A stretch of DNA of 64,000 nt from NCBI GenBank assembly GCA_025060135.1, contig JANXCY010000012.1:4224-68223 (forward strand), given 5' to 3'. The position numbers and the translations under genes were made by a program. The notes beneath the pieces were generated by a model, which saw only the letters and a program-made list of their open reading frames with translations, ran no database searches and had not been told where the DNA came from. The DNA is from Anaerolineae bacterium. GTDB lineage: Bacteria; Chloroflexota; Anaerolineae; B4-G1; DUEL01. Below are positions 2 through 46,502 of the stretch, piece after piece (position 1 is the first letter of the stretch; every line of letters begins with the position of its first letter).

Positions 2-1138
2 CAGGCCCGCCTGCAGCGGGAAATCATCGGCCCCGGCCTGGAGGCCTACTACGCGTTCATCACCCCGCCCTTCTTCGCCCTCCTTTTTGTCCCCCTGGCC
101 CTGTTGCCGTACGGTCTGGCATTCGCGCTCTGGAGTTTTCTGGGACTGGTGGCCCTCTGGGCCAGCGTTCGTCTCATGGGCATCCGCTCGTCCCGCCCGT
201 TCCTGTGGGCGCTGACCTGGTTTCCCGTCTTCGCCGCCGTCAGTTACGGCCAGAACAGCCTGCTCAGCCTGTTCCTCCTGGCCCTGACCTTCCGGCTCTG
301 GCGGGACGGACGGCCCTGGGCCGCCGGGCTGGCCCTGGCTGGGCTGATGTACAAACCGCAACTGACCCTGGGCCTGGCCCTCCTCTGGCTGGTGAGCGGT
401 CGGGACGGATGGAAGGCACTGGGGGGATGGGCGCTGGGGACTGTGGCCCTCACCGCTCTGTGCGCCGTTGCCTGGCCCGAGGCCAGCCAGGCCTACCTCC
501 ACTTCGCCCGGACCATCCTGCCTGACCTGCCCAACTGGCAGGATTTTCCCCTCTGGCACCTGCACACCGTCCGGGGCTTCTGGCGGCTACTGCTCCCCGA
601 ATCGCCGCTCCTGGGGGATGTCCTGACCCTTTTGCTGACCGGACTGGGGCTAGTGGAGGGATACCGGTTCTGGCGGTGCCACCGGCTTCACCCCCCGCTC
701 ACCTTCGCGGCGGCCGTCGCCCTGACCCTCTGGATCACCCCCCACGCAATGATATACGACTGGGCCATCCTTCTCATCCCTGCCGTCCTGCTCTGGGAGG
801 AGGTTCCCGAGAGACGCAGAGAATGGCGGGCTCTGTATGCCCTGGTCTGGCTGACGACCTTCCTGGCCCCGCCGCTGACCTACGGCCAGTGGCGGCTGGC
901 CCACCGGGCCGTCCAGATCACCCTACTGGCCCTGAGCCTAGCCCTCTACCGAATTCGCCAATCTCTCAACCGCCCCCCTATACTTGCCATTTCTGCCAAA
1001 ATGGGATATGATATGATAGACAAACTTCATAGAGGTACACGTCCAGATCACCAACCGGATGACCGACACGAACCCGTGCCGCCTGGCAATGGATCGGAAC
1101 CAGAGCAGCCTGGATGTCCTGGAATCCCTTCTGGCTGA
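2..1138 (+). CDS. 5'-partial polytopic membrane protein. Probably a GT-C-type glycosyltransferase of the DUF2029/GT87 kind. The ORF is open to the window edge.
   Basis: The reading frame is open from base 2 with no stop before 1138, and the first ATG at 104 is internal. Many predicted TM helices and a Pro/Gly-rich loop are present. The Trp/Leu-rich pattern resembles polyprenol-dependent mannosyl/arabinosyl transferases. The last 60 aa or so are hydrophilic and low complexity, and contain an embedded promoter. Confidence 0.5.
   Translation, partial: QARLQREIIGPGLEAYYAFITPPFFALLFVPLALLPYGLAFALWSFLGLVALWASVRLMGIRSSRPFLWALTWFPVFAAVSYGQNSLLSLFLLALTFRLWRDGRPWAAGLALAGLMYKPQLTLGLALLWLVSGRDGWKALGGWALGTVALTALCAVAWPEASQAYLHFARTILPDLPNWQDFPLWHLHTVRGFWRLLLPESPLLGDVLTLLLTGLGLVEGYRFWRCHRLHPPLTFAAAVALTLWITPHAMIYDWAILLIPAVLLWEEVPERRREWRALYALVWLTTFLAPPLTYGQWRLAHRAVQITLLALSLALYRIRQSLNRPPILAISAKMGYDMIDKLHRGTRPDHQPDDRHEPVPPGNGSEPEQPGCPGIPSG
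984..1012 (+). promoter_or_regulatory. sigma70-like promoter TTGCCA-17-TATGAT inside the 3' tail of the upstream gene. It probably drives the 1283..6040 operon.
   Basis: TTGCCA lies at 984-989, followed by a 17-nt spacer and TATGAT at 1007-1012. It sits in a locally AT-richer patch about 270 nt upstream of the 1283 start codon. Confidence 0.4.
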
Positions 1139-1282
1139 CCTGCTTCACCCCCTGGGTTGGGTCGCCGCCCAGGCACTCCTTCTGGTCCAGCCACTGCTGG
1201 CAGGCTGGGTGGATGAATCCATCATAGATCGGGCGATTCGTCGCTTGGAAGGCTCCTGGCCGCAAAGCGTGGAGAAGCAAGA

Positions 1283-2014
1283 ATGACCTTGATGGCATCT
1301 GGGCTGCTGATAGGGGTGGCAGTCCTTGCGCTCCTGTGGACCACCATCCGCATCCGTCGGGGCCGGGCTCCTCAGACCCGTCCCCTGAAAGCCTTTGATG
1401 ATTTGCCGGATCAACTGGGCTATTCCGCTGAGAGGGGAGCCCCCCTTCTCTTCACCCTGGGCACCGGCCCGGTCGGGAGCGATCGTACGCTGGCCTCCAT
1501 TGCCGCCCTGGAGACTCTTCACGGATTGGCCGATGCTGCGGTGGCCTACAGCGCCCCTCCTCTGGTTGCAGTGGGAGACCCCACCCTCCTCCCCCTGGCT
1601 GAGGACATCCTCCGACGAGCATGGAATCGCAGAGGTTTCCCGGAACGGCATAACCCGAACCTGGTCCGTTTCATTGGGGTCCAGCCGCTGGCCTACGCCG
1701 CGGGCGTCGCCGATATACTGGGACATGAGCGAGTGCATGCCCACATCCTGATGGGTTCTATAGATGAAGAAGCCGCTCTGATCACCCATGCGGCCGAAGG
1801 GCAGGGAATCCCTCAATCCATCGCGGTGGACCGATTGCCAGCATTGGGAGCGCTCTACCCCGCCGAAGCGGCACTGGCTGCTGGAGAGGAACTGTATGCA
1901 GGCCCCGCGCGGGTTACTGGCCTCCCCCGGTATCTGGGAAGTCTGCAGGTTCAGGACCTCCTTCGTCTTCTGGTAGTGCTTCTCATTTTCTTGAAGACCC
2001 TGGGAATCTGGTAG
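1283..2014 (+). CDS. hypothetical membrane-anchored protein with N- and C-terminal TM helices
   Basis: It has a hydrophobic N-terminus (LLIGVAVLALLW) and a hydrophobic C-terminus (LLRLLVVLLIFL). A GGAGAAG RBS precedes the start. It lies 10 nt upstream of the next gene. I recognise no domain. Confidence 0.55.
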   Translation: MTLMASGLLIGVAVLALLWTTIRIRRGRAPQTRPLKAFDDLPDQLGYSAERGAPLLFTLGTGPVGSDRTLASIAALETLHGLADAAVAYSAPPLVAVGDPTLLPLAEDILRRAWNRRGFPERHNPNLVRFIGVQPLAYAAGVADILGHERVHAHILMGSIDEEAALITHAAEGQGIPQSIAVDRLPALGALYPAEAALAAGEELYAGPARVTGLPRYLGSLQVQDLLRLLVVLLIFLKTLGIW

Positions 2015-2024
2015 CGAGGTACTG

Positions 2025-2654
2025 ATGGACCGATTCGTCCGAAGAGCCCTCCCGACCTCCGTGGCCATTGGGACAGGGATTCTGGTTCTCCTGGGTTACC
2101 TTTTTCCCCACACGGTGCTGGCATCCGTTCGGGACGAACTGATCCACTGGGGAGTGATTATCGCCGCCTTCGCCTTCATCCTGGGCTTCTTCAACCTCCT
2201 GCGGGTCCATCTGGCACGCGCCCGGACCTCCGGTGGTATCTACAGCCTTTTCCTGATTCTCGCCGCTTTGGCCAGCCTGGGCCTGACTTTGGCCGCTCTC
2301 CTCCTCCCGCCGCTGCGGTTTTGGGGAGACTGGTGGTTCCGCTCCATTATCGCTCCCCTCCAGGCCACTGTGATGGGACTGGTGGCCTTTGTGCTGGCGG
2401 TGGCAGCGGTTCGCCTCCTTCGCCATCGCCGGCAGTGGGAAGCCCTGGTCTTTCTGGTCGCTGTCCTGGTGGTCCTGATGGGAACACTCCCGCTACCGCT
2501 CCCCTTTAGCGGCTGGCTGGAGGAACTCCGCCACTGGTGGATTCAGGTCCCAGCCATGGCCGGAATGCGCGGCCTGTTGATCGGTGTGGGCCTGGGCGCT
2601 CTGGTGGTAGGCCTGCGCATACTGGTCGGCGCCGATCGCCCGTATACCGATTAG
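2025..2654 (+). CDS. hypothetical polytopic membrane protein (about 6 TM)
   Basis: There are hydrophobic stretches throughout. It is tightly spaced with both flanking genes. No recognisable catalytic motif. Confidence 0.55.
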   Translation: MDRFVRRALPTSVAIGTGILVLLGYLFPHTVLASVRDELIHWGVIIAAFAFILGFFNLLRVHLARARTSGGIYSLFLILAALASLGLTLAALLLPPLRFWGDWWFRSIIAPLQATVMGLVAFVLAVAAVRLLRHRRQWEALVFLVAVLVVLMGTLPLPLPFSGWLEELRHWWIQVPAMAGMRGLLIGVGLGALVVGLRILVGADRPYTD

Positions 2655-2670
2655 CTCACTTGAGGGACCA

Positions 2671-4530
2671 ATGATTTACTGTCCGAAATGCGGCACCGTC
2701 AATCGTCAGGGAAGCCGATTCTGTAACGAATGCGGAGCCCCGCTACCTGCAACGGGTATCCGCTGCCCCGCATGCGGCGCAACGAACCCGGCAGGCAATG
2801 TCTACTGCGACCGCTGCCACACCCGACTGGTCCCGGCCGAACCGCCTCCCCAGGAAGAGCGACCAGCGGAACGTCCTTCCCCGATCCGGGGAATATCCCT
2901 GCCCTCCATTTCCCCAACCAGGGAGGCCGCCGAAATACCAGAGTGGCTGGCCGAACTAAGCCCCGCCGCACCCACCGCACCGGAGGCCCCAACCCAGGCC
3001 GAAATACCAGAGTGGCTGGCCGAACTAAGCCCCACCGCACCCACCGCACCGGAGGCCCCAACCCAGGCCGAAATACCAGAGTGGCTGGCCGAACTAAGCC
3101 CCGCCGCACCACCAGGAGGCCCGTCCAAACCAGAGGTACCTCCTATATTCCCGGTGGCTCCAGAGCCTATCCAGCCCCTGGAAAAGCCTGCCTCTTCGGC
3201 AGAAGAGATTCCCGAATGGCTGAAAGACCTGGAACCCTCCCCCTTGCCTTCAGAAGGCTTATCGGTTCCCGTCCCGCCAGTGATGGCCGAGGCCACCTCC
3301 GCGCCTTCTCCCCCTCCACCGGCAGTGGTACCTCCGCTCATTCTGGAGGAAACGGAAATTCCCGCTCCTTCAGAAGCAGAGATTCCGGACTGGTTAAGAG
3401 AGGCAGAAAAAGAGCCGGCTGCGCCACCGATAGAGGCTGGCGGGCTGGTGCCTGCGGAAATTCCTGAATGGTTGCGGGCATTACAGCCCCGGGCGGAGAT
3501 GCCCGCTGAGGTAGAGCCAGTGGAGACAGAGGGATTCCTGGCTGGCCTGCGGGGACTCCTTCCGGTCGCCCGAGGGCTGGATAAGGTGTCCACCGCCGGG
3601 CCCTCTCTCCCCGTGGCGCCCAGCCCGGCCGCCGTTGCCCGGGCAGAACTCCTCCAGAGCCTGCTGTCCCGCCCCCTGGTTCTGCCCCACGCAGAAGCGC
3701 GAGAGGCTGTCCGGCGGGAAGGTTGGATGCTCACGCGCCTGCTGGTGGGATTGGTGCTCCTGGTCGCTATCGTGGCTCCGATGCTGGTCCAATGGCGTCT
3801 GTTTGGCCCTCCCCTCATTCCGACCGCCGATAACCTCTTTGCGCTGGTAGAAGGGATCGCTCCCCAAACCCCTGTTCTGGTGGCATGGGAATACGGGCCC
3901 GCCGAAGCCGAAGAGATGGATCGGGTCGCTGGCCCCCTGATGGACCATCTCCTGCGCCGCCAGGCCCGTCTGGTGATCGTGAGCACCCGTATGGAGGGGC
4001 CCGCGACGGCAGAAGCCCTGCTCACCTCCCGGCTGGCCGATACCCAGGAGCGCCTTCGTCGGGTCGCCAATCTGGGTTATATCCCCGGACAGGCCACCGG
4101 TGTACGGGAAGCCATTGGCAACCTAGATGGGCGAACTGAATGGGGGAGCGGTGCGCCAGCCGAGCAGATCGAAGCGATGGCCGGAGTCCAGTCGGTCGCC
4201 GATGTGGGTATGGTCGTGATCCTGGCCGCGCAGCCCGAAGACCTGCGCGTCTGGGTAGAGCAGGTATCCGCCACCCGACCGGATGTGCCCATCGTGGCCG
4301 GTATCAGTGCACGGGCAGAGCCCCTGATGGGGCCCTACCTGGCCGCCGGTCAGATTCAGGGGGCCCTCTCCGGATTGACCGGTGGCGCGGCCTATGAACA
4401 GCGACTGGATACTGGTCGGGGGCGGGAGTATGAATACTACCTGAACTCCCTGGGGCTGGCCCTATGGGCGGTTGCTGCTCTGACAGTGCTCGGGGCCCTG
4501 ATTTCTCTGCTGGGAGGACGGAAGCGATGA
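2671..4530 (+). CDS. double zinc-ribbon protein with a Pro-rich IPEWL-repeat region, one TM helix, a globular domain of about 220 aa and a C-terminal TM anchor
   Basis: The N-terminus has two zinc-ribbon pairs (CPKCG..CNECG and CPACG..CDRCH). Six (E/D)IP(E/D)WL motifs are embedded in a Pro/Ala-rich linker. One TM helix is LTRLLVGLVLLVAIVAPMLV and the C-terminal TM is LALWAVAALTVLGALISLLGG. The stop overlaps the next start (ATGA). Confidence 0.7.
   Translation: MIYCPKCGTVNRQGSRFCNECGAPLPATGIRCPACGATNPAGNVYCDRCHTRLVPAEPPPQEERPAERPSPIRGISLPSISPTREAAEIPEWLAELSPAAPTAPEAPTQAEIPEWLAELSPTAPTAPEAPTQAEIPEWLAELSPAAPPGGPSKPEVPPIFPVAPEPIQPLEKPASSAEEIPEWLKDLEPSPLPSEGLSVPVPPVMAEATSAPSPPPPAVVPPLILEETEIPAPSEAEIPDWLREAEKEPAAPPIEAGGLVPAEIPEWLRALQPRAEMPAEVEPVETEGFLAGLRGLLPVARGLDKVSTAGPSLPVAPSPAAVARAELLQSLLSRPLVLPHAEAREAVRREGWMLTRLLVGLVLLVAIVAPMLVQWRLFGPPLIPTADNLFALVEGIAPQTPVLVAWEYGPAEAEEMDRVAGPLMDHLLRRQARLVIVSTRMEGPATAEALLTSRLADTQERLRRVANLGYIPGQATGVREAIGNLDGRTEWGSGAPAEQIEAMAGVQSVADVGMVVILAAQPEDLRVWVEQVSATRPDVPIVAGISARAEPLMGPYLAAGQIQGALSGLTGGAAYEQRLDTGRGREYEYYLNSLGLALWAVAALTVLGALISLLGGRKR
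2921..3115 (+). repeat. 69-bp (23-codon) tandem direct repeat, about 2.7 copies with one mismatch between copies 1 and 2
   Basis: The unit gaaataccagagtggctggccgaactaagcccc(g/a)ccgcacccaccgcaccggaggccccaacccaggcc starts at about 2932, 3001 and 3070. It encodes the repeated peptide AEIPEWLAELSP(A/T)APTAPEAPTQ. Confidence 0.85.
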
Positions 4531-5165
4531 CGGTAGACCTGCTCGGGCTAATGGTTGGCACCCTGCTGACCCTGATGGTGCTCAGTTACATCATCGGGGA
4601 TAATCCCTTCTACCGCCTGGCACTTCATTTGTTCATTGGTACGACAGTGGGATATGGGCTGGCCGTTACCGTTGTAACCGTCCTGGTACAGACTGTGTTC
4701 CCGGCCCTCCAGAGCAACCCGGATGAACAGGCCCGTACCGTCTTCCCGCTTGTGCTGGGCCTCCTGCTCCTTTTCAAGGGATTCCCGCGCTGGGCAGGAT
4801 GGGGAAATCTCTCCACCGCCTTCCTGGTCGGCGTGGGTTCAGCGGTGGCTGTGAGCGGGGCACTGCTGGGGACCATCCTCCCGCAAAGTGCTGCCGTCGG
4901 GGCTCCAGGCCCATGGAGTATCCTGCTGTTCGTGGGAACGGTAGGCACCCTCCTGGCATTCACCTTCACGGTTCCCCGCCGGCCCGCCATCCAGCGCCTC
5001 TGGAACTGGACACTGGGGCTCTGGGGACGGGTGGGACGCCTGTTCCTGCTGGCCGCCCTGGGCGCGGCTTTCGCCACCGCGCTGATTTCCAGCCTGACCG
5101 TTCTGGTCGGGCGGGTCTACGCAGTGGTCATGGGCCTCCAGCAACTCCTCCCCCTGGTGAGGTAG
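4527..5165 (+). CDS. hypothetical polytopic membrane protein
   Basis: Start corrected to the ATG of MTVDLLGLMVGTLL, which overlaps the upstream stop (ATGA). The ORF-track start at 4464 would overlap the upstream gene by 66 nt. The protein is hydrophobic throughout and rich in Gly/Ala/Leu/Val. Confidence 0.55.
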   Translation: MTVDLLGLMVGTLLTLMVLSYIIGDNPFYRLALHLFIGTTVGYGLAVTVVTVLVQTVFPALQSNPDEQARTVFPLVLGLLLLFKGFPRWAGWGNLSTAFLVGVGSAVAVSGALLGTILPQSAAVGAPGPWSILLFVGTVGTLLAFTFTVPRRPAIQRLWNWTLGLWGRVGRLFLLAALGAAFATALISSLTVLVGRVYAVVMGLQQLLPLVR

Positions 5166-5171
5166 CGTCCA

Positions 5172-5633
5172 GTGTACTGGGTGGATGTACAGAGCGAAGG
5201 GAACTGGCCGCTGAACCTGGAAGTTCTGCGGAAGACCGCGATGGCGACGCTGGCCCACCAGAACGCGCCGGATGTGGAAGTCGCCATTGTGATTACTGAC
5301 GACGAGAGCATGCAGGAACTGAACCGGCGGTTTCGCGGCGTGGATGCCCCCACCGATGTCCTGGCGTTCCCCAACGAAGCGCGTGGCCCCTTTGTGAGCG
5401 CGCCCGGATTCCCCCGCTATCTGGGCGACATCGCCATCTCCTACCCCCGGGCCGAAGAACAGGCTGCCGAGGCCGGCCACTCCACCCAGGCCGAACTGCA
5501 ACTCCTGGTAGTTCACGGCCTCTTGCACCTCCTGGGCTACGACGACCAGAGTGAACCGGAGCGGGCCCGAATGTGGGCCGTCCAGGAAGCCATCCTCCGC
5601 CATCTGGGAGTTTCTGTCCTTCTTCCCGAATGA
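5172..5633 (+). CDS. ybeY: endoribonuclease YbeY (16S rRNA 3'-end maturation factor)
   Basis: Metal-binding signature HGLLHLLGYDD. GTG start with a GAGG RBS at 5158-5164. Length 153 aa. Confidence 0.9.
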   Translation: MYWVDVQSEGNWPLNLEVLRKTAMATLAHQNAPDVEVAIVITDDESMQELNRRFRGVDAPTDVLAFPNEARGPFVSAPGFPRYLGDIAISYPRAEEQAAEAGHSTQAELQLLVVHGLLHLLGYDDQSEPERARMWAVQEAILRHLGVSVLLPE

Positions 5634-6040
5634 ACCGCTGTTCCCGCCTCCTGTCCGCCTTTGGCCATGCCTTTGCTGGCCTCTTCCATGCCTTCCGAAC
5701 CCAGCGGAATATCCCCATTCACCTGACCATCGCGGCAGGCGTGATGGCGCTGGGGCTCTGGTTGGACCTTTCCCGAATGGAATGGGCCATTCTGGCGCTG
5801 ACCATTGGCATCGTCCTGAGCGCAGAGTTACTGAACAGCAGCCTGGAGACAGTGGTGGACATGGTCAGCCCGGAGTACCACCCGATGGCCAAACGGGCCA
5901 AAGACATAGCGGCCGGGGCCGTCCTGTTAACGGCGATTGTCGCCGTGGTGGTAGGCCTGCTGATCCTGGGTCCGCCCCTCTGGGCACGATTGGTCGCCGC
6001 ACTGGTCCCTCCCCCGGGGAGCCCCCCGATGCTCCGCTGA
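5630..6040 (+). CDS. dgkA: diacylglycerol/undecaprenol kinase, DgkA family
   Basis: The ATG overlaps the ybeY stop (ATGA). About 136 aa with three TM helices and the DgkA N-terminal amphipathic motif (RLLSAFGHAFAGLFHAFRTQRN). ybeY-dgkA is the classic gene order. Confidence 0.85.
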   Translation: MNRCSRLLSAFGHAFAGLFHAFRTQRNIPIHLTIAAGVMALGLWLDLSRMEWAILALTIGIVLSAELLNSSLETVVDMVSPEYHPMAKRAKDIAAGAVLLTAIVAVVVGLLILGPPLWARLVAALVPPPGSPPMLR

Positions 6041-6067
6041 GCCTCCTTCGGGCCGGGACGACGGGCT

Positions 6068-6093
6068 GCGGCGGGGGTTGCGCCCCCCGCCGC
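6068..6093 (+). terminator. GC-rich hairpin after dgkA (10-bp stem GCGGCGGGGG/CCCCCGCCGC, 6-nt loop) with no U-tract. Putative operon end.
   Basis: A perfect inverted repeat lies 28 nt after the dgkA stop, just before the convergent HDAC gene end at 6230. The missing T-run lowers confidence. Confidence 0.3.
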
Positions 6094-6229
6094 AACCCGT
6101 TGAGACCACAGGAGCCGGCCCGAAGCCCATGCACAGCCACTGCGATCCACAGACCCCAACCGAGAAGGTGAGACTCTCTGCTTCGGAACCCCCCAGGGCG
6201 GGCCGACGCCGGCAAACCACTGGCCAACC

Positions 6230-7318
6230 TCAGAAGTCCGGTTGCAAAAGGGGATGTTGCTCTTTCAGACGGGCCAGCACCGGCATAATGTCGGGCTCGC
6301 TGGCCGGAAACGGTGGGCCAAAAGGATCAGAAAGTGTCTCCTCGCCCAGCAGGGCGTAGAAAGTGTTCAGCACCCCATGGGCCAGCACATCTAAGTGATA
6401 GCCTCCCTCCAGCGTAAAGACGATGCGTCCTCCGCAGAGTTCCTCCGCCATCGCCACCAGTTCGCGCGCGATGTGTGCGTACCCCCCCAGCGAGAGTTGC
6501 ATCATCGCCAGCGGGTCCTGCCAGTGGGAATCATACCCAGCGGAGACCAGGAGCAGGTCAGGACGAAAGCGGCGAACCAGCGGCCAGACCAATTCTCTGT
6601 ACACTTGCTGGTACCCCTGGTCTCCTACCCCAGCGGGCAGCGGGACGTTAAGAACAGAGCCTTTTCCCGCCCCTACACCCACTTCGCTCCAATGTCCCGT
6701 GCCGGGATAGTAGGGATACTCGTGGGTGGAGAAATAAAAGACAGAGGGATCGCTCTCAAAAACAGCCTGGGTACCATTGCCGTGGTGGACGTCTATGTCG
6801 GCGATAAAGACGCGCTGGATGCCTGGGAGGGTCTGAGCATGGCGGGCCGCCACCGCGACATTGTTGAAAAGACAGAACCCCATGCCCCGCTCGGGAAGGG
6901 CATGATGGCCAGGCGGGCGGACCAGAGCAAAGCCATTGCGGACCTCTCCGTCTATGACCGCTTCCACCAGGGCCAGAAGCCCCCCGGCAGCCATAACAGC
7001 CGCATCATAGGAGCGGGCATTCATGTACGTGTCGGCATCCAAGTGTCCCCCGCCGCGCTCCGCAACCCGCCGCACCTGGGCAATGTAGGCCGGCGTATGA
7101 ATTCGGGCCAGTTCCGCTTCGGTCGCCGGGCGGGCCTCCACAGGGACTAACCGCTCCAGGATTCCGACCTCCCCCAAGACGACCATGATCCGCTCCAGCC
7201 GACGGGCATTCTCCGGATGGCCAGGCTGATTATGCTCTAAATAGATGGGGTGGTACACGTAACCGGTCGCCACGGCACACCTCCCAAGTGGGCGGGCATA
7301 CTCCCAGATGACAGACAA
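6230..7318 (-). CDS. histone deacetylase-family hydrolase (AcuC / acetylpolyamine amidohydrolase-like)
   Basis: Arginase/deacetylase-fold motifs: HHGNGTQ, DIDVHHG and an EGGY..L C-terminal motif. 362 aa. It starts 16 nt after the carB stop on the same strand. Confidence 0.8.
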   Translation of the reverse strand: MSVIWEYARPLGRCAVATGYVYHPIYLEHNQPGHPENARRLERIMVVLGEVGILERLVPVEARPATEAELARIHTPAYIAQVRRVAERGGGHLDADTYMNARSYDAAVMAAGGLLALVEAVIDGEVRNGFALVRPPGHHALPERGMGFCLFNNVAVAARHAQTLPGIQRVFIADIDVHHGNGTQAVFESDPSVFYFSTHEYPYYPGTGHWSEVGVGAGKGSVLNVPLPAGVGDQGYQQVYRELVWPLVRRFRPDLLLVSAGYDSHWQDPLAMMQLSLGGYAHIARELVAMAEELCGGRIVFTLEGGYHLDVLAHGVLNTFYALLGEETLSDPFGPPFPASEPDIMPVLARLKEQHPLLQPDF

Positions 7319-7333
7319 CGGGCAGATCAGGCC

Positions 7334-10300
7334 TTACCGGCGAGGGGCCGGAAGCCGGTACCATTCCTGGAGGCTCCGGACTTCCAGGGGATGCTGCCGG
7401 AGCGAACGGATAGCCTGAACCGCCGCGCTGGCCGCGGAGAGCGTCGTAGTGTAGGCCACCCCACAAGCCACCGCCGCCTTCCGGATGGCGCTCTCATCCG
7501 TATAGGCCCCCCGCCCCAGAGGAGTATTGATCACCAGGTCAATCAGGCCCTGCTCAATGTAATCCACCGCGTGGGGATGCCCCTCATAAACCTTGTTGAC
7601 CACTTCTACCTTCAAACCATGCCGCTGGAGATAAGCGGCCGTCCCACCCGTTGCCAGCAACCGGAAGCCCAACTCGGCCAGCCCCCGCGCGATAGGCACC
7701 AGGTTGGCCTTGTCGTTGTCGTTCACGCTGAGAAAGGCCGTCCCTTCTACCGGCAGCCGGTTCCCAGCCGCCATCTGCGCCTTCGCAAAGGCGAGCCCGA
7801 AATCATCGGCCATGCCCATCACTTCGCCGGTACTCTTCATCTCCGGGCTCAACAGGGCATCCACCTCCCGGAACTTAATGAAGGGAAGCACCACCTCTTT
7901 CACGAAGTACCCTTTGGGAACTGGCTCCCCGGTGAAACCCAGGTCCTCCAGCCGCTGGCCCATTATGACCTTCGTCGCCAGGCGGGCCAGAGGAACACCG
8001 ATGGCCTTGCTCACGTAGGGAACCGTCCGGGAGGCGCGGGGGTTCACTTCCAGGACGTACACGACGCCATCCTTCATCGCCATCTGGACGTTCATCAACC
8101 CGCGCACCTGCAGCGCTTCCGCCAGGCGATAGGTGTATTCCCGAATGGTCTGCAAGTGCTCCGGGGCGACCATGTAAGTGGGAATCACACAGGCCGAATC
8201 GCCGGAGTGAATCCCCGCCAGTTCGATCTGCTCCATAATGGCCCCGATGACGGCCCGCTCCCCATCCGCGATGCAATCCACATCCATCTCAAAGGCATCC
8301 TCCAGGAAGCGATCGATCAGCACCGGGGAGCGCGGGTCGATCTCTATGGCTTCCGCCACACACCGTTCCAGCGTGGCCTGGTCGTAGACAATGGCCATAG
8401 CCCGCCCGCCCAGGACGTAACTGGGCCGCACCAGCACCGGGTAGCCGATCCGGGCCGCGACCAGCCGGGCCTCCTTCACCGTCAGGGCGGTCCCGTGTTC
8501 CGGCTGGGGGATCTCCAGTTCCTTGAGAAGACGGCTGAACCGCTCCCGGTCCTCTGCCAGGTCAATGCTATCGGGGGGAGTCCCCAAAATCCGCACCCCG
8601 GCCCGGTGGAGGGGGAGCGTCAGTTTCAGCGGCGTCTGCCCCCCGAACTGGACAATCGCTCCCAGCAGATTCCCCCTTTGCTGCTCCGTCTCCACGATGT
8701 TGAGAACATCCTCCAACGTGAGCGGCTCAAAGTAGAGGCGGTCCGAGGTGTCGTAGTCGGTACTGACCGTCTCGGGATTGCAGTTGACCATGATGGCCTC
8801 TATGCCCATCTCCCGCAGGGCGAAGGCCGCGTGGCAGCAACAATAGTCAAACTCAATCCCCTGACCGATGCGGTTCGGCCCACTGCCCAGAATGATGACC
8901 TTGGGGCGGTCCGAGGGGTCGGCCTCGCATTCCGTCTCGTAGGTGGAATACAGATACGGAGTGTAGGCCTCAAACTCAGCCCCGCAGGTATCCACCCGCT
9001 TGTAGACCGGGCGAATCCCCAGAGCCAGCCGCCGCTGGCGGACCTGCCGCTCGCTGACGTCCCAGAAACGGGCCAATTGAGCGTCCGCAAAGCCCATCCG
9101 TTTGGCCTCCAGCAACTGTTCAGCGGAGACGGTATCCAGCCGGGTGGCCCGCAGCGCCTGCTCCATCGCCAGGATTTCGGCCATTTGCTGGAGAAACCAG
9201 GGGTCAACGGAGGTCAGAGCCGCCACCTCCTCCACGCTCATCCCCGTCCGGAGCGCGTAGTAGATATACAGCATGCGGTCCGGATTCGGCGTGATCAATC
9301 GCTGCCGCAATAGATGAGGGTTCACCCGTCGTTCATCTGCGACCAGGCCGATCAGGCCGCTTTCCAGGGAACGAAGCCCTTTCTGAAGGGCTTCTTTGAA
9401 GGTGCGTCCGATGGCCATCGCTTCGCCCACCGATTTCATCTGGGTGCCCAGCGTGTCGTCTACGCCCGGGAACTTCTCAAAGGCCCAGCGGGGGATTTTG
9501 ACCACCACGTAATCAATCGTCGGCTCAAAAGAGGCCATAGTCTCCCGGGTGATGTCGTTGGGGATTTCGTCCAGCGTGTATCCGACCGCGAGTTTGGCAG
9601 CGATTTTGGCGATGGGGAAGCCGGTGGCCTTGGAGGCCAGGGCAGAACTGCGGGAGACACGAGGGTTCATCTCAATGACCACCATCTGCCCGTTCCGGGG
9701 GTTGACGGCGAACTGGATGTTGGACCCTCCCGTCTCCACGCCGACCCGGCAGATGATGCGTCGGGCCCAGTCCCGCATCTGCTGGTACTCCTTATCCGTC
9801 AGGGTCTGGGCCGGGGCGACGGTGATGCTATCGCCCGTATGGACGCCCATCGGATCAAAGTTTTCAATGGGGCAGACCACGACGAAGTTGTCTTTGGCGT
9901 CCCGCATCACCTCCAGTTCGTACTCTTTCCAGCCCAGGACCGACTCTTCTATGAGCACCTGGTGCACCGGACTCTGGGAGAGCCCCCAGAGTACGGCGTC
10001 CCGGAACTCCTCCGGGGTCCAGGCGATACCTCCCCCGGTCCCTCCCAGCGTAAAGGAGGGACGAATAATCGCAGGGAGGCCGACTTCCTCCAGGACGCGC
10101 CAGGCTTCCTCCAGACTGGTAACCGTCGCGCTGCGAGGGGTGGGAAGGCCGATGTCGGTCATGGCGGCTTTGAAGAGTTCGCGGTCTTCGGCCACCCGAA
10201 TGGCTTCCGGACTGGCGCCAATCAGACGAACCCCGTATCGTTCCAAGACGCCTTTCTCGGCCAGGGTTACCGCCAGGTTCAGGCCCGTCTGTCCTCCGAC

Positions 10301-10567
10301 AGTGGGCAGAAGGGCATCGGGCCGCTCTTTGGCGATGATGCGCTCCACCACCTCCCATGTCAGCGGTTCAATATAGGTCCGGTCGGCAAACTCCGGGTCG
10401 GTCATAATGGTCGCCGGATTGGAGTTCACCAGGATGACGGTGTACCCTTCCGACCGGAGGGCCTTGCACGCCTGGGTGCCAGAATAGTCAAACTCGCAGG
10501 CTTGCCCGATGACAATCGGCCCGGAGCCGATGACCAGAATCCGGTGAATGTCTGTCCGCTTAGGCAT
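7334..10567 (-). CDS. carB: carbamoyl-phosphate synthase large subunit
   Basis: 1077 aa with two ATP-grasp halves. The N-terminus [38 protein letters not shown] is canonical. An MGS-like C-terminal domain is present. Confidence 0.97.
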
Positions 10568-11687
10568 GGCTCTTCTGCGCGTCCATTAAACGGGTGAATT
10601 CCTCAAAGAGGGCAACGGCATCGTGAGGGCCGGGCGACGCTTCGGGGTGGTACTGGACGCTGAACGCCGGAAGAGAGCGATGCCGTAGACCCTCTACAGT
10701 ACCATCATTGAGGTTGATATGGGTAACTTCCACATCGCCAGGCAGGGAATCGGGGTCCACCGCGAAGCCGTGATTCTGAGAGGTGATCTGGATTTTGCCG
10801 GTCGCCAGGTCTTTGACCGGCTGGTTGGCTCCCCGATGGCCGAACTTCAATTTGAACGTCTTTCCCCCGACGGCCAGACCCAGTAGTTGATGCCCCAGAC
10901 AGATGCCGAAGACCGGAACCCGTCCCAGGAGGTGGGCAACGTTCCGGATGGCATACGGGAGCGCCGCCGGGTCTCCCGGGCCGTTGGAAAGAAGAACACC
11001 GTCCGGATGCAGGGCCAGGACTTCCTCAGCGGGGGTCTCCGCCGGAACCACCAGGGCTCGGCAGCCAGCATCCACCAACAACCGGAGGATGTTCCGTTTG
11101 ACGCCGAAATCGTACACCACGACCCGATACCGGGGTTCATGCGGCGGTATCACGCGCCACTCTGGCGGCACGCCTTCGGTCCAGATATACCGCTCGGCGC
11201 AGGTTACTTCCCGTACCAGGTCCCGGCCCACCAGGCCCGGCGACGCGGCCGCTTTGCGGACCAGGCGCTCCTCATCCAGGTCCACGGTGGAGAGCACACC
11301 CTTCATAGCGCCGGCCAGCCGGATGTGGCGGGTAATCGCCCGGGTGTCCACTCCGGCAATGCCCACAATCCCATGCTCCTGGAGAAATGCTTCCAGGCTC
11401 TTCCGGGCACGCCAGTTGCTATATATGGGACTGAGTTCCCGAACCACGAAACCTTCTACCCACGGTCGCCAGGATTCCACGTCCGTCTCATTGACACCGT
11501 AGTTGCCAATATGGGGGTAGGTCATCACTACGATTTGTCCTTTGTAGGAGGGGTCGGTCAGGATTTCCTGGTAGCCGGTCATGCTGGTGTTAAACACCAC
11601 TTCACCAGCCACTTCGCCCCGGGCGCCAAACGCCCAGCCGTGAAAGACCCGACCGTCCTCCAATGCCAGAATGGCCCGATCGCGCAT
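10560..11687 (-). CDS. carA: carbamoyl-phosphate synthase small (glutaminase) subunit
   Basis: 375 aa. CarA N-domain plus a class-I glutamine amidotransferase with the catalytic Cys context GICLGHQLL. The stop overlaps the carB start by 8 nt. Confidence 0.95.
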
Positions 11688-11734
11688 GGGACCTCCTCAG
11701 CCAATGGATGTTGACGGTTTCGCTGCCATAACCC

Positions 11735-12739
11735 TTAATCCATGCACGCCACGATGGCCCGGGTGAACTCGCGGGTCGTGGCGGTGCCGCCCATGTCCGG
11801 GGTGAGGGCCTTGCCCTGGCGATAAGTTTCCAGGACCGCCTTTTCCACCCGGGCGGCCGCTTCGGTCTCTCCCAGGTAGGCCAGCATCATGGCGCCTGCC
11901 AGGATCAGCGCGGTGGGATTGGCGATGCCCTTCCCAGCGATGTCCGGCGCAGAGCCGTGGACCGCCTCAAAGACGGCGACCCCATCGCCAATATTGGCCG
12001 CCGGAGCCAGACCCAGCCCCCCCACCAGTCCCGCCGCCAGGTCCGAGACGATGTCGCCATAGAGGTTCGGACAGAGGAGCACATCGTGCCGCCCCGGGTC
12101 CAGCACCAGGTCCAGGCACAGGGCATCCACAATGCGCTCGCTATATTTCAAGTGCGGGTATTGGCCCGCCACTTCGCGGGCACACTGGAGAAACAGCCCG
12201 TCGCTCATCTTCAGGATGTTGGCTTTGTGGACGGCGGTTACCTGGCGGCGATGATGGCGGGTCGCGTAATCAAATGCGAACCGGGCAATCCGCTGGCTGG
12301 CCTGGCGGGTGATGCGCTTCACCGCGATCACCGTGTCGTCATCTATCCAGTGCTCCACGCCCGCGTAGAGGTCTTCCGTATTCTCCCGGATGATCACCAG
12401 GTCTACGGCGGGGTAGCGGGCCGGGACCCCGGGAATGCTCCGCACCGGACGCAGATTGGCGTAGAGGTCCAGCCGTTGCCGGAGCGCAACGGTAGCACTG
12501 GCGAAACCGCTCCCGACCGGTGTGGTGATGGGGCCTTTCAGCGCCACCCCGCAGCGGCGAATCTCCTCCACCGCTTCATCCGGTAGAGGGGTGCCGGTCA
12601 TTTCCATCGCGGCGATGCCCACCTCAAAGGGTTTCCATTCAATCTCCACTCCCGTGGCCGCCAGCACTGTCCGGGTGGCGTCCACGATTTCCGGCCCGAT
12701 GCCATCGCCGGGAAGGACGACTACGGTGTATCCGGCCAT
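11735..12739 (-). CDS. beta-decarboxylating dehydrogenase of the isocitrate/3-isopropylmalate/homoisocitrate family
   Basis: 334 aa with the family signature [27 protein letters not shown]. The NLYGDI variant is more typical of HICDH/NAD-IDH than of classical LeuB NLFGDI. It lies downstream of leuCD-type genes. Confidence 0.85.
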
Positions 12740-13236
12740 CGGAACCCTCCGTACCGCAGGACATGGGGAACCAATCCGCCGCTCTCCAGAATGGCCCGCA
12801 TCACCGGGGGGAGGGGACGGAAGGTCCGCTCCAGGTTGCGGGTGAGGTTGCGCACCCGGCCTTCTACCAGGTCCACCTCAATCTCATCTCCGGTCTCAAA
12901 GCCCCCGGTATCGCAAATGATGGGCATCAGACCCACGTTGACCGCATTTCGGAAGAAGATGCGAGCGAAGGAGGAGGCGATGACAGCGGCAATCCCCCGT
13001 TCCTTCAGGACCAGGGCGGCGTGTTCCCGGGAAGAACCCTGTCCGAAATTTTTTCCTGCGACCACGAAGTCGCCCGGCTGAGCGCTACGGGCAAACTCCG
13101 GATCGGCATCCTCCAGGGCATGTTCCGCTAAGGCCTGGAGATTCCCCCGCAGATGGTAATACCGGCCGGGGATGATGTGATCGGTGCTGATGCCGTCGCC
13201 GAATCGCCAGATCTTGCCTCGAAGGATTCTCTCCAT
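12721..13236 (-). CDS. leuD: 3-isopropylmalate/homoaconitate dehydratase small subunit (short archaeal-type LeuD/LysU)
   Basis: 171 aa aconitase swivel domain (GSSREHA, GDNIDTD-like DHIIPGRYY region). Placed 12 nt after leuC. Confidence 0.85.
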   Translation of the reverse strand: MERILRGKIWRFGDGISTDHIIPGRYYHLRGNLQALAEHALEDADPEFARSAQPGDFVVAGKNFGQGSSREHAALVLKERGIAAVIASSFARIFFRNAVNVGLMPIICDTGGFETGDEIEVDLVEGRVRNLTRNLERTFRPLPPVMRAILESGGLVPHVLRYGGFRWPDTP

Positions 13237-13248
13237 AGGTCTGCTCCT

Positions 13249-14496
13249 CTACAGGAATTCTCTCGGATCAGTAATCCGACCCCGGACCGCCGTAGCGGCC
13301 GCCGTGGCGGGCGAGGCCAGGTAAATTTCCGCCTCAGGGTTGCCCATCCGTCCCTGAAAGTTCCGGTTCTGGGTGGAAAGACAGCGCTCTCCATCTGCCA
13401 GGATGCCCTGGTGGACTCCAACACAGGCCCCGCATCCGGGGGGCAGGATGAGCCCACCGGCTTCTATAAAGATTTGGAGCCATCCTTCCTGAAGCGCGGC
13501 CAGATAGACCTCTCGGGACGCCGGGCAGACCAGGAGACGAACGCCGGGGTGGACCTGGCGTCCCCGCAAAATATGGGCGGCCATTCGAAGGTCCGAAAGC
13601 CGCCCATTGGTGCAAGTGCCAATAAAGACCTGGTCTATCGGCACATCTCCCGCTTCCTCCACGGGCCGAACGTTGTCCACAAAATGGGGGAAGGCGACCT
13701 GGGGAGAAAGGGAGGGGGCATGCAGTTCCACCCGGCGTTCGTAGACCGCATCCGGGTCAGGGGCCAGAGGTAGATAATCCTCCGCCCGTCCGCGCTCGGC
13801 CAAGAACTGACGGGTCTGCTCATCGGAAGCGCAGAGGCCTGTTTTGGCTCCTGCTTCTACCGCCATATTGCAGAGAGTCATCCGCTCCTCCACGCTCATG
13901 GCCGCGACGGTGGAGCCGCCGAACTCCAGGGCCTGATAGTTGGCACCGTCTGCGCCCAAGAGCCCAATCACGTGGAGAATCACGTCCTTCGCCATCACCA
14001 TGGGAGGGAGGGGCCCCTCCACTTCCACCCGAATGGTGGGGGGAATCCGCAGCCACGTCTCCCCCAGCGCCATGGCCACGGCAATATCGGTGGAGCCCAT
14101 GCCGGTGGCAAAGGCAGCCAGGGCCCCGGCGGTGCAAGTGTGGGAATCCGCACCCAGGATAATCTGGCCGGGTCGGGCCCACTGCTCGGCCACGATCTGG
14201 TGGCAGATGCCCTCGCCAGGCGGATAGAAGCGGGCTCCGCCTTCCTCGGCAAAGGTACGGAGCCGTTTCTGGACGTTGGCGAGTTCCCGGCGGGGTGCCG
14301 GTGCGGCGTGGTCGGAGAAGAAGAGGGTCTGCGTCGCCGGACGGGTTCTTTCCAGCGCGCTGAACCGGTCCAGAGCCAGGGGACCAGTCCCTTCGTGGGC
14401 CAGCAACAGGTCCACCGGAACCACCACGATGTCCTCTGCCCGGACCGTTTCCCCGAGGCGCCGGGAGATGATTTTCTCGGCTAGTGTAAGTCCCAT
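13249..14496 (-). CDS. leuC: 3-isopropylmalate/homoaconitate dehydratase large subunit (archaeal-type LeuC/LysT)
   Basis: 415 aa aconitase family. Fe-S ligand cysteines are in GTCTNGR and PGCGACVG contexts, and substrate-binding GADSHT is present. Confidence 0.9.
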   Translation of the reverse strand: MGLTLAEKIISRRLGETVRAEDIVVVPVDLLLAHEGTGPLALDRFSALERTRPATQTLFFSDHAAPAPRRELANVQKRLRTFAEEGGARFYPPGEGICHQIVAEQWARPGQIILGADSHTCTAGALAAFATGMGSTDIAVAMALGETWLRIPPTIRVEVEGPLPPMVMAKDVILHVIGLLGADGANYQALEFGGSTVAAMSVEERMTLCNMAVEAGAKTGLCASDEQTRQFLAERGRAEDYLPLAPDPDAVYERRVELHAPSLSPQVAFPHFVDNVRPVEEAGDVPIDQVFIGTCTNGRLSDLRMAAHILRGRQVHPGVRLLVCPASREVYLAALQEGWLQIFIEAGGLILPPGCGACVGVHQGILADGERCLSTQNRNFQGRMGNPEAEIYLASPATAAATAVRGRITDPREFL

Positions 14497-16894: not shown

Positions 16895-16965
16895 CGTTGG
16901 CCTCCTGATGATAACCCTGCCCGGGCCGTATGGGCGGATCACGTCAGGCACCCGGTTGGGTCCGT

Positions 16966-18426
16966 TTAACCGAGAAAGCGTCGGAGAATGGCCGCGCGGG
17001 TGATCAGGTCGGTCAGTTGCATCACGTGATTCTGTTCCAGCGAACGGCGAATCCGGCGCACCAGTTCCAGATGCTCGGGGTGGGGCGAGAAAGAGAAACC
17101 GGCCTGTTCCAGCGCGGTGCGCAGGGACCGGGTCATAAAGGGCCCTTCCAGGTCGGTGAAGCCCAGCGCGGCGCGGATTTCTGCCCGGAAAGAAGGGTAG
17201 ACTTCGTCCAGAAAGGCCAAGTCGTCCGCGGTTAGAGCGTCAAAGGCGATCAGTTCCGGGGGCAGGCCCAGCGAGTACAGGGCACAGACAAAGGAAATGG
17301 CGCGCGGCAGCGTGATGCCGTTCATCTCGCGGGCGTAGCCAAACAGTCCGACATGCAATTTCCGCGTCCGACGAGGCGGCACGTATTGGGCCACATGATT
17401 AATATACGGAGCCAGTTCCGCGATTTGCTGCCGATAGGCCAGGCTATACCGCTCAATAATCGCCAGGGCGCGCTCGGTATCCACAGGCATGGCCTGGCCG
17501 ATTTCCCGGGTCCGGAGGTACTCACAGGCAGCCCGGACCTCCGGGACAGGATAATCATACTTAAAGGCGGACTGGATGGTAAAGGTAACCACACTCGGAT
17601 ATTCCTTCCCGACCCGTTCCACCGTGGGCGGCGACAAGCCCCCCCGGAATGGTGCCGCGCCCAGTCCGATGATCGGGTAGAAGCGTACACCGATGGATGC
17701 GGACAACTCGTCCAACCGGGCCAGCGCGATCTTATTCGCCAGTGCCGCTGCCACCAGTCCGTAGTTCATAGCGGTATCTGAGCGGGCCAGGAAGACCCGT
17801 TGTTCGCGGATCGGTTTATCGGCCAGATATTCTCTCATAATGTCGGCGGATCGCAGCAACGTGGGCACATCTTCAAATAGAGGGATCACCCCGATAGACG
17901 GGGGGGAGAATTCCCCAATCCATTCGGCAATGGTAATATCATCGTCCCGAAGACGAAGGTGCTGCCGTCCCACAATGTGGTTCATGTAGTAACGATACAC
18001 CCGGTCAATGCACCGGGCCGAGACCGTCATCGGGAGAATGACTTCAAAGATAGGGGCGACTCGGTCCTTGTAGAACAGTGAAGCCACATCGTAGGAACGA
18101 GGGATACTCTCCAGGGTCTCCAGGAGAATCTTGGCTTCCGCTTTCTCGACCAGCGGGTTCGGGACTCGCAGCGTGAGGCGTACATCCTGGCCCAGTACGT
18201 GGTCCTGAAAATACTCCGGATAGAACGAGAGGAGTTTCTTGACCACATATACATCAATTTCCTTGCCCTCCACATCCCACATCTGTTCATCGCATCCCAG
18301 ATGGGAGTAAGCATAGTACGCCTCGCGGACCTCGTCCTCTCCGGCCAGCACACTGGCGGTGGCAAAGAATGGTACCGTCGCGTTGTCAGGATGCTGAGTG
18401 CTCATACAGCGTGGGATAATGGACAT
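16966..18426 (-). CDS. archaeal-type phosphoenolpyruvate carboxylase (PepcA family)
   Basis: Start corrected to MSIIPRCMSTQHPDN, the hallmark N-terminus of archaeal-type PEPC, with a GAGGAG RBS 8 nt upstream. About 487 aa is typical for this family, against more than 880 aa for bacterial Ppc. Confidence 0.75.
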   Translation of the reverse strand: MSIIPRCMSTQHPDNATVPFFATASVLAGEDEVREAYYAYSHLGCDEQMWDVEGKEIDVYVVKKLLSFYPEYFQDHVLGQDVRLTLRVPNPLVEKAEAKILLETLESIPRSYDVASLFYKDRVAPIFEVILPMTVSARCIDRVYRYYMNHIVGRQHLRLRDDDITIAEWIGEFSPPSIGVIPLFEDVPTLLRSADIMREYLADKPIREQRVFLARSDTAMNYGLVAAALANKIALARLDELSASIGVRFYPIIGLGAAPFRGGLSPPTVERVGKEYPSVVTFTIQSAFKYDYPVPEVRAACEYLRTREIGQAMPVDTERALAIIERYSLAYRQQIAELAPYINHVAQYVPPRRTRKLHVGLFGYAREMNGITLPRAISFVCALYSLGLPPELIAFDALTADDLAFLDEVYPSFRAEIRAALGFTDLEGPFMTRSLRTALEQAGFSFSPHPEHLELVRRIRRSLEQNHVMQLTDLITRAAILRRFLG

Positions 18427-46428: not shown

Positions 46429-46502
46429 TGCCCCTGGCGCGACTCGAACGCGCGACCAAGAACTTAGGAGGTTCCTGCTCTATCCTTCTGAGCTACAGGG
46501 GC
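46429..46502 (-). tRNA. tRNA-Arg (anticodon CCT), 74 nt, CCA not encoded
   Basis: Manually folded: acceptor GCCCCTG/CAGGGGC, D-arm GCTC-AGAAGGATA-GAGC, anticodon stem GGAAC/GTTCT with loop CTCCTAA, variable loop TGGTC, T-arm GCGCG-TTCGAGT-CGCGC and discriminator A. Confidence 0.88.

Follow-up and report, generated by a model that had tools for sequence, protein, structure and literature searches.

Several described bacterial systems correspond in part to a string of membrane-protein genes at positions 1059–5165 of a 64,000-nt stretch of DNA (hereafter, the window) from an Anaerolineae bacterium (assembly GCA_025060135.1, contig JANXCY010000012.1, positions 4,224–68,223 of the forward strand). 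These genes are designated here, from 5′ to 3′, orf0, g1, g2, g3, and g4, and are followed by ybeY and dgkA. In many bacteria, an operon with the order phoH–(7TM-HD)–ybeY–dgkA is present. The ybeY and dgkA genes of the window are likewise adjacent and overlapping, whereas the module upstream of them forms a unit of gene order that is mobile and independent, and no PhoH or 7TM-HD match was found among the five upstream window proteins. Zinc-ribbon bitopic scaffolds and anti-sigma factors (Myxococcus GltJ and ZAS-type proteins) combine a cytoplasmic zinc ribbon, a Pro-rich linker, one transmembrane (TM) helix, and an external domain. The g3 protein differs from them in having no sequence relation, a second, C-terminal TM anchor, and no partner sigma factor; the only match to GltJ was a low-complexity one, in a different protein (c12).

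The C-terminal peptide of FtsZ (DIPAFLR) is bound, besides ZipA, by FtsA, which is an actin-fold protein. Residues I374, F377, and L378 of this peptide are critical for ZipA binding (PMC8669495). A motif repeated in the g3 protein, I-P-x-W-L, has the spacing of I374/F377/L378 and is also a short hydrophobic motif on a disordered tether, and, as for the FtsZ peptide and PilM–PilN, an actin-fold protein is encoded with the module in most genomes. However, the g3 motif has Trp in place of Phe and an acidic instead of a basic flank, is internal and multi-copy instead of C-terminal, and the ATPase of the module is GlmL-like and not FtsA- or PilM-like. This ATPase matches PF13941, the family of GlmL/MutL (an accessory protein of B12-dependent glutamate mutase), over the whole profile (E-values from 7.9e-55 to 2e-129), but it scores 75–97 bits against the NCBIfam GlmL cut-off of 475, has ~120 extra C-terminal residues, adjoins membrane-protein genes and not mutase genes, and is not encoded in the window. 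RCK/KTN (TrkA-type) domains share with the C-terminal domain of g3 the parallel beta–alpha, Rossmann-like order and were among its top Foldseek matches; the g3 domain differs in being TM-anchored at both ends and predicted to lie outside, the matches had a TM-score of ~0.3 and E-values above 1e-3, and no conserved GxGxxG or other nucleotide-binding motif that would place it in RCK/KTN was found in the alignments.

An earlier note on this stretch, made from the sequence alone, had described g1–g4 as four uncharacterized membrane proteins standing in the place of phoH and the 7TM-HD gene. Comparative analysis revealed that the four belong together as a conserved membrane module, found in two or more phyla, with which genes of a GlmL-type actin-fold ATPase and a partner protein are repeatedly associated. 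The features of the module in the window are as follows:

1059..1286, + strand: orf0, an ORF of 75 aa whose stop overlaps the g1 start (ATGA); no Pfam match
1283..2014, + strand: g1, 243 aa, DUF6754; TM helix, (beta-alpha)6 Rossmann-like domain predicted to be cytoplasmic, TM helix
2025..2654, + strand: g2, 209 aa, polytopic membrane subunit with ~6 TM segments, without a family model
2671..4530, + strand: g3, 619 aa, zinc-ribbon / motif-array / TM-domain-TM protein
2671..2826, + strand: N-terminus of g3, double zinc ribbon with four CxxC pairs, cytoplasmic
2827..3726, + strand: linker of g3, Pro/Ala/Glu-rich tether with six E-I-P-[DE]-W-L motifs
3727..4530, + strand: C-terminal core of g3; TM helix, (beta-alpha)6 Rossmann-like domain predicted to be extracytoplasmic, TM helix, GGRKR tail
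4527..5165, + strand: g4, 212 aa, polytopic membrane subunit without a family model; overlaps the 3′ end of g3 by 4 nt

Distribution of the module and its usual partners

The Anaerolineae set comprised 60 loci, 58 of which were retrieved via the alignment of DUF6754, the family of g1 (all from metagenome-assembled genomes of Anaerolineae/Chloroflexota), and two via exact-protein look-ups; closer sequences were used in the locus search, the full diverse DUF6754 alignment being too divergent. The order orf0–g1–g2–g3–g4 was kept wherever the contig extended, with g1–g4 adjacent and co-oriented. The g2 gene and the N-terminus of g3 were found in 58 of the 60 loci (the two exceptions being contig ends), g4 was found in 39 loci, and matches to the orf0 hidden Markov model lay 5′ of g1 in 56. 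ORFs related to orf0 were detected in other loci by tblastn, with conservation of the alignment core GFLGSQALLxxQPL.

In all 26 Anaerolineae loci outside the clade of the window that had downstream DNA, g4 was followed on the same strand by a gene encoding a GlmL/MutL-type actin-fold (ASKHA) ATPase of ~586 aa (PF13941, E = 7.9e-55), and in 25 of them a gene encoding a ~357-aa protein (hereafter, the ~360-aa partner) came next; in the remaining locus (L032; loci are designated by L numbers), the contig ended inside the ATPase gene. A third gene, present in 22 loci, encoded a protein of ~180 aa whose acidic N-terminus is followed by a TM helix and a Thr/Pro-rich spacer and whose C-terminus resembles a sortase signal. 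The spacing of these three genes after g4 was usually within ~10 nt. The third gene was the last of the cluster in L019 (12613–13140), L020 (16877–17461), L021 (17148–17723), and L022 (17163–17819), and its product ended there in x-E/Q-T-G, a hydrophobic stretch, and basic residues. Sequence searches of the PDB with the ATPase (c9) and partner (c10) profiles yielded nothing meaningful, with only a weak KOW-like match for the partner, and no paper mentioning PF13941 was found in the searchable literature.

The most distant matches to DUF6754 also stood in a four-gene string, with products of 393/359, 214/207, 279/273, and 209/205 aa. Comparison of the Anaerolineae and these Zixibacteria-type proteins with hhalign gave E-values of 1.7e-25 for g2, 5.8e-17 for the C-terminal domain of g3, and 4e-20 for g4, and the Zixibacteria-type copies of DUF6754 scored up to E = 2e-122. 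More than 563 such stretches were found in a metagenome scan, and 82 loci were analyzed; the named members of this non-Chloroflexota set belonged to candidate division Zixibacteria. The g1, g2, g3, and g4 genes were detected in 82, 75, 67, and 61 of the 82 loci, respectively, the lower counts of g2–g4 being due to short contigs, and many long contigs carried two or three complete modules in tandem. The Zixibacteria-type g3 is the TM–domain–TM core alone (279 aa): the zinc ribbon and the motif were found in none of the 108 non-Chloroflexota g3 copies, and the zinc ribbons, the motif array, and orf0 were found only in Anaerolineae loci. The flanks of the Zixibacteria-type modules contained a PF13941 ATPase (E = 2e-129) with 31–33% identity over the full length to the Anaerolineae ATPase (E ~1e-100), as well as a ~375-aa protein with 30–33% identity to the Anaerolineae partner (E ~1e-50).

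Thus, the four genes, for which the earlier note had asked whether they travel together and with ybeY, were strongly syntenic in the 60 Anaerolineae loci and the 82 other loci, and they were accompanied by ybeY only in the clade of the window. Known families and a lack of synteny were the outcomes that this note had set against its own reading; profile and Foldseek searches returned nothing specific, and synteny was strong.

The following observations were made on the surroundings of the tandem modules. The module was present three times in tandem in L095, L072, L077, L079, L088, L089, L109, and L112 (~2500–13800 each), and on most of these contigs the modules were flanked by the GlmL-like ATPase gene and followed by a 118-aa gene and a gene of pyruvate phosphate dikinase (PPDK). 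In L114, L144, and L129, one or two modules were followed by a lipoate-protein ligase (LplA) gene. A convergent ftsZ gene (product 52% identical to B. subtilis FtsZ) was located 2–3 kb past the third module in L080 (17188–18327, − strand) and L083 (18414–19553, − strand), two related Zixibacteria loci.

Structure and conservation of the module proteins

The g1 protein matched Pfam family DUF6754 (PF20539) at E = 1.5e-27 (96.8 bits against a cut-off of 27) over profile positions 21–242 of 257. To our knowledge, DUF6754 is a family without assigned function, and no paper mentioning it was found in the searchable literature. The statement of the earlier note that none of the four proteins has a nameable domain therefore has to be amended for g1, although it was right in that no characterized family fits. 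The AlphaFold2 model of g1 (pLDDT 89.9, pTM 0.84) consisted of a TM helix, a helix, six beta–alpha units, and a TM helix, and had no Foldseek match in the PDB at E ≤ 1e-3. The first helix is followed by a strongly basic stretch (IRIRRGRAPQTR), and in distant homologues it is preceded by a signal peptide and an FN3-like domain; given these basic residues and the exported N-terminal domain of the homologues, the g1 domain should be cytoplasmic. A nucleotide-binding GxGxxG loop in g1 was considered and rejected: it is present in Anaerolineae and is not kept in the Zixibacteria-type homologues.

The g3 protein has a composite structure. Its N-terminal CxxC pairs (residues 4, 18, 32, and 46) matched Pfam families DZR (E = 6.6e-10, residues 4–49) and Zn_Ribbon_1 (E = 4.9e-12), and this zinc ribbon was kept at 46–84% identity in 58 of the 60 Anaerolineae loci. 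The linker (residues 53–352) is composed of 21% Pro, 15% Ala, and 15% Glu and carries IP[DE]WL motifs at residues 89, 112, 135, 180, 238, and 264 (nt positions 2935, 3004, 3073, 3208, 3382, and 3460; the 15-mer carrying the motif is AAEIPEWLAELSP), the first three of which lie within a 69-bp tandem repeat at 2929–3110 (2.6 copies, 98% identical) and are encoded as identical units. The motif consensus, xE[IV]P[DE]WL[RQ]E[LM]xP, was found in 246 instances in 34 of the 35 intact orthologues, with a copy number of 0–15 among orthologues. Two or more copies of the motif were present in no other ORF of the window and of ~0.9 Mb of related loci, except for a frame-shifted g3 fragment in L001; a single loose match was located at window positions 16930–17235. 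Strict co-occurrence of orf0 and the motif array was rejected, since L037 and L059 have motif copies and no detectable orf0. The linker is followed by two hydrophobic helices (residues ~353–376 and ~591–614) that flank an alpha/beta domain of ~215 aa. This anatomy agrees with the earlier reading of the sequence, in which a pair of zinc ribbons, six IP(E/D)WL motifs, and a ~220-aa domain between TM anchors were recognized.

The AlphaFold2 model of g3 residues 341–619 (pLDDT 88.1, pTM 0.81) had the element order TM helix, helix, six beta–alpha units, TM helix. A Foldseek search of the PDB with this model gave no match at E ≤ 1e-3, the best (E = 4e-3) being generic Rossmann proteins (RCK/TrkA, G6PD) with a TM-score of ~0.3. 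Sequence searches of the PDB with the g1 and g3 C-terminal domain profiles produced nothing meaningful, and no Pfam or NCBIfam match was found for the g3 domain in 27 family members scanned at E up to 10. A profile search of 1.84 billion proteins with the g3 C-terminal domain retrieved 4429 representatives (50% identity clustering) at E ≤ 1e-3, 2210 of them at E ≤ 1e-30, and a zinc-ribbon match at the N-terminus was found in 6 of the 10 long members of this family that were scanned. One of the four families alone has thousands of distinct representatives, and three of the four have no Pfam or NCBIfam model. Since the zinc ribbons of g3 must be cytoplasmic and its C-terminus carries RKR or a longer basic tail, the g3 domain should face outward.

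In 34 of 40 loci, the zinc ribbon and the C-terminal domain shared a reading frame, which in the other six was broken inside the repetitive linker; the frame breaks and the variation in repeat copy number probably stem from errors in assembly or from real instability of the repeat. It should be noted that the deposited annotation of g3 (P0001) is a protein of 428 aa that starts at residue 192 and therefore comprises neither zinc ribbon and only two of the six motifs (window 2671–3243), and that in L001 and L002 gene callers split g3 or place a spurious ORF on the antisense strand of the linker. Thus, the repetitive linker is where the zinc-ribbon protein is cut short or divided by gene callers, including the one behind the NCBI record.

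For g2 and g4, no Pfam or NCBIfam match was found even with 27 family members scanned at E up to 10. Six segments of the g2 protein are hydrophobic, and its N-terminus and loops 2–3 and 4–5 are positively charged. The possibility that g2 and g4 are inverted-topology paralogues in the style of NqrD/E and RnfA/E was rejected, as hhalign showed no similarity between them and no Rnf/Nqr Pfam match was obtained. The g1 protein and the g3 C-terminal domain were likewise rejected as sequence paralogues (hhalign probability of 0.95%), only the order of secondary structure elements being matched.

Residue conservation was assessed in alignments of 130–185 copies per family, with the Anaerolineae and non-Chloroflexota sets combined. 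Conserved positions were R33, E50, G52, Y138, G158, E163, Q178, G201-E202-E203, A206, and D225 in g1; P10, P28, P111, R130, R133, P156, R182, and G187 in g2; and D25-N26, Y29, G38, Y43, G78, G102, Q120, F145, F147, G170, and R196 in g4. In the outward-facing domain of g3, essentially only W188 was conserved. Near-invariant residues being many in g1, g2, and g4 and almost absent from the g3 domain, an inner core under constraint and an external face that evolves fast are suggested.

Proposed complex and alternative explanations

The genes at 1059–5165 are proposed to be the Anaerolineae form of a widespread, uncharacterized four-subunit cytoplasmic-membrane complex, together with orf0, and we rate this explanation as a whole at even chances. 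That the four proteins form one complex is, judging from sequence, somewhat better than an even prospect, while its coupling to the ATPase and the role of the motif array as a docking site are put forward tentatively. In such a complex, g1 would have its N-terminus outside and, between its two TM helices, a (beta-alpha)6 domain on the inside; g3 would share this TM–(beta-alpha)6–TM layout with the domain facing outward; and g2 and g4 would be two unrelated polytopic subunits of ~210 aa. The g3 protein of Anaerolineae would have gained a cytoplasmic double zinc ribbon and a disordered, acidic, Pro-rich tether with 4–15 E-[IV]-P-[DE]-W-L motifs, and this array may act as a multivalent docking site for a cytoplasmic partner. 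Since FtsA, a partner of the FtsZ peptide, has the actin fold, the ATPase of the module is an attractive candidate partner for the motif. The ~360-aa partner would be a barrel-sandwich/KOW-like protein, and the ATPase at the inner face may be coupled by the complex to the outward-facing domain in an envelope task, e.g., transport, assembly, or scaffolding. In the clade of this organism, ybeY–dgkA would have replaced the partner genes at the 3′ end. The system appears to be an uncharacterized kind of system that is now well delimited, and its mechanism may resemble that of a known class. Four membrane subunits, an actin-fold ATPase, and a partner protein thereby constitute a defined experimental unit, for which the repeated motif of Anaerolineae is a directly testable handle on the binding partner.

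Several points weigh against this explanation. The membrane sidedness of the g1 and g3 domains, which should be as described, is derived from the positive-inside rule and domain logic only, and the topology of g4 is ambiguous by the positive-inside pattern. A symmetrical inverted pair is not supported, there being no sequence similarity between g1 and the g3 C-terminal domain or between g2 and g4. For none of g1–g4 did searches of Pfam, NCBIfam, and the PDB yield a homologue whose function is known. No homologue of the ATPase, the ~360-aa partner, or the Thr/Pro-rich protein was detected by tblastn in the 64-kb window, nor were they present in the 10 kb upstream in a sister contig, and the ATPase and the partner are thus no more than candidate components in this organism. 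Finally, the g3 orthologue of L052 (377 aa) contains no motif copies and the ATPase genes are kept in this locus, so that the motif array is accessory and not obligatory for the link to the ATPase.

Two alternative explanations are compatible with part of the evidence each. The first, which is unlikely but fares best among the alternatives, is that of a solute or ion transporter, in which g2 and g4 would form the permeation path and the Rossmann-like domains of g1 and g3 would be tethered regulatory or ligand-binding modules of the RCK/KTN type (Trk/Ktr/Kef). A pair of small polytopic subunits is typical of transporter cores, polar and charged residues are conserved across the phyla (R130, R133, and R182 of g2; D25, N26, Q120, and R196 of g4), and Foldseek matched the g3 C-terminal domain to the RCK domains of MthK, TrkA, and Kef with a probability of 0.97–1.0. 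These matches, however, have E > 1e-3 and a TM-score at the generic Rossmann level (~0.3), the glycine-rich loop of g1 is missing from the Zixibacteria-type homologues, and no transporter family of Pfam or NCBIfam was matched consistently by the 27 members of g2 or g4; moreover, the conserved actin-fold ATPase and the tandem triplication of modules are left unexplained.

The second, a somewhat less probable one, is the assembly or export of an envelope glycoconjugate or surface polymer, with one domain of the nucleotide-sugar type on the inner side (g1) and another, for processing or hand-over, on the outer side (g3). The window starts within a GT87 gene, and a sister genome has four GT87 and one PMT_2 glycosyltransferase genes directly upstream on the same strand, but such neighbours were seen only in the closest relatives of this organism and are absent from the recurrent flanking clusters. 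The Foldseek lists of the g1 and g3 domains include GT-B glycosyltransferase halves and UDP-sugar 2-epimerase; these structural matches are weak and generic, and no glycosyltransferase, flippase, or polymerase family was detected in g1–g4. The Thr/Pro-rich protein with the sortase-signal-like C-terminus, which ends the cluster in other Anaerolineae, is in line with this explanation.

It is improbable that the module is a cytoskeleton-coupled scaffold of division, morphogenesis, or motility, in which the motif array would mimic the FtsZ C-terminal peptide and recruit actin-fold proteins, whether FtsA-like or not, or partners of FtsZ. The motif does have the I-P-x-aromatic-L spacing of the residues needed for ZipA binding and a long disordered tether, the conserved partner of the module is an actin-fold ATPase, and ftsZ lies 2–3 kb from the module in two Zixibacteria loci. 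The differences from the FtsZ peptide given above speak against this, and further points do so as well: the ATPase belongs to the GlmL/MutL branch and not to the FtsA or MreB branches, the Zixibacteria-type modules are entirely devoid of the motif, and the proximity of ftsZ is confined to one lineage with the genes convergent. An equally improbable extension of this idea is that the DUF6754 module and the GlmL-like ATPase are an unrecognized cross-phyla membrane machine for which the filamentous Anaerolineae acquired an array mimicking the FtsZ tail; if true, division, morphogenesis, or surface assembly would be served by a new trans-membrane system coupled to the cytoskeleton. A role in anti-phage defence was also considered and was rejected, as neither the five proteins of the window nor the three partner proteins matched any PADLOC model.

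Relation to ybeY–dgkA and other neighbours

The genes and elements adjoining the module in the window are the following:

984..1012, + strand: sigma-70-like promoter match TTGCCA-17-TATGAT, within the 3′ end of the upstream GT87 gene
5172..5633, + strand: ybeY (rRNA maturation endoribonuclease), a neighbour outside the conserved module
5630..6040, + strand: dgkA-type prokaryotic diacylglycerol kinase gene, a neighbour; ATGA overlap with ybeY
~6060..6100, no strand: GC-rich hairpin between the convergent dgkA (+) and histone-deacetylase-family gene (−), without a U tract

The positions and spacings of the genes agree with the ORF listing, the distances being 10 nt for g1–g2, 16 nt for g2–g3, a 4-nt overlap for g3–g4, 6 nt for g4–ybeY, and a 4-nt ATGA overlap for ybeY–dgkA. 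Since orf0 overlaps g1 by ATGA, the coupled string comprises seven genes and not the six counted in the earlier note, in which the coupling was recognized correctly and orf0 was missed. A GGAG/GAGG-like Shine–Dalgarno sequence precedes five of the seven starts (g1, g2, g3, g4, and ybeY) and is absent before orf0 and dgkA. The identification of ybeY (Pfam YbeY, E = 3.3e-37; TIGR00043, E = 1.5e-41) and dgkA (DAGK_prokar, E = 1.4e-38) was confirmed. The whole string is probably co-transcribed with ybeY–dgkA. Near the promoter expected at about 1000 there is a site that matches the consensus alone (the scan gave 3 such sites, shuffled sequence letting 0.8 be expected). The hairpin expected at about 6080 is present; it (−61.1 kcal/mol, z = −4.63) was not called by the terminator scan and, being without a U tract, is not a canonical intrinsic terminator.

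The ybeY–dgkA pair was located 3′ of g4 in 9 of the 10 informative close relatives (L001–L003, L009–L013, and L015; g1 identity to the window at least 66%). In the tenth, L005 (g1 identity 70%), DUF1015, ABC1, and patatin genes were found in its place, and the pair was beside the module in none of the 26 more distant Anaerolineae loci and none of the 82 non-Chloroflexota loci. It is thus very probable that the module is an independent conserved unit unrelated to ybeY; as far as gene order can indicate, it has no conserved functional link to ybeY–dgkA, and the ybeY neighbourhood is unfit for inferring the function of g1–g4. The treatment of g1–g4 as a unit with ybeY–dgkA therefore does not extend beyond the immediate clade of the window, and its combination with the proposal that g3 is an anti-sigma-like or signalling receptor, g1–g4 working with ybeY–dgkA in place of phoH and the 7TM-HD protein, is highly improbable: the 6-nt gap to ybeY, the adjacency in close relatives, and the superficial likeness of a cytoplasmic zinc ribbon, TM helix, and external domain to zinc-binding anti-sigma factors are outweighed by the lack of a sigma factor, histidine kinase, or response regulator among the recurrent neighbours, by the absence of an anti-sigma domain in the Pfam and NCBIfam scans, and by the g3 core being without any cytoplasmic domain in the 108 copies, the zinc ribbon and linker being an addition, in Anaerolineae only, to a core protein that is always accompanied by the other three subunits.

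In ~10 close relatives, a divergent gene upstream of the module encoded a 214-aa protein with a C-terminal double zinc ribbon (L001 1984–2628, − strand; L002 67–711, − strand); this gene was not at that position in the window. The GT87 and PMT_2 genes are located in L145 1–9114 of the sister assembly (GCA_033581355.1), upstream of the start of the window, and at window positions 104–1138; together with two uncharacterized genes of 495 and 546 aa, they are all on the same strand and directly upstream of orf0. On the 3′ side of the hairpin, a histone-deacetylase-family gene (6230–7318, − strand, E = 2.9e-97) and a gene of the carbamoyl-phosphate synthase large subunit (7334–10567, − strand) were identified. 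The Rfam search gave zero RNA families across the 64-kb window, and a tRNA-Arg(CCT) gene was located at 46429–46502 (− strand).

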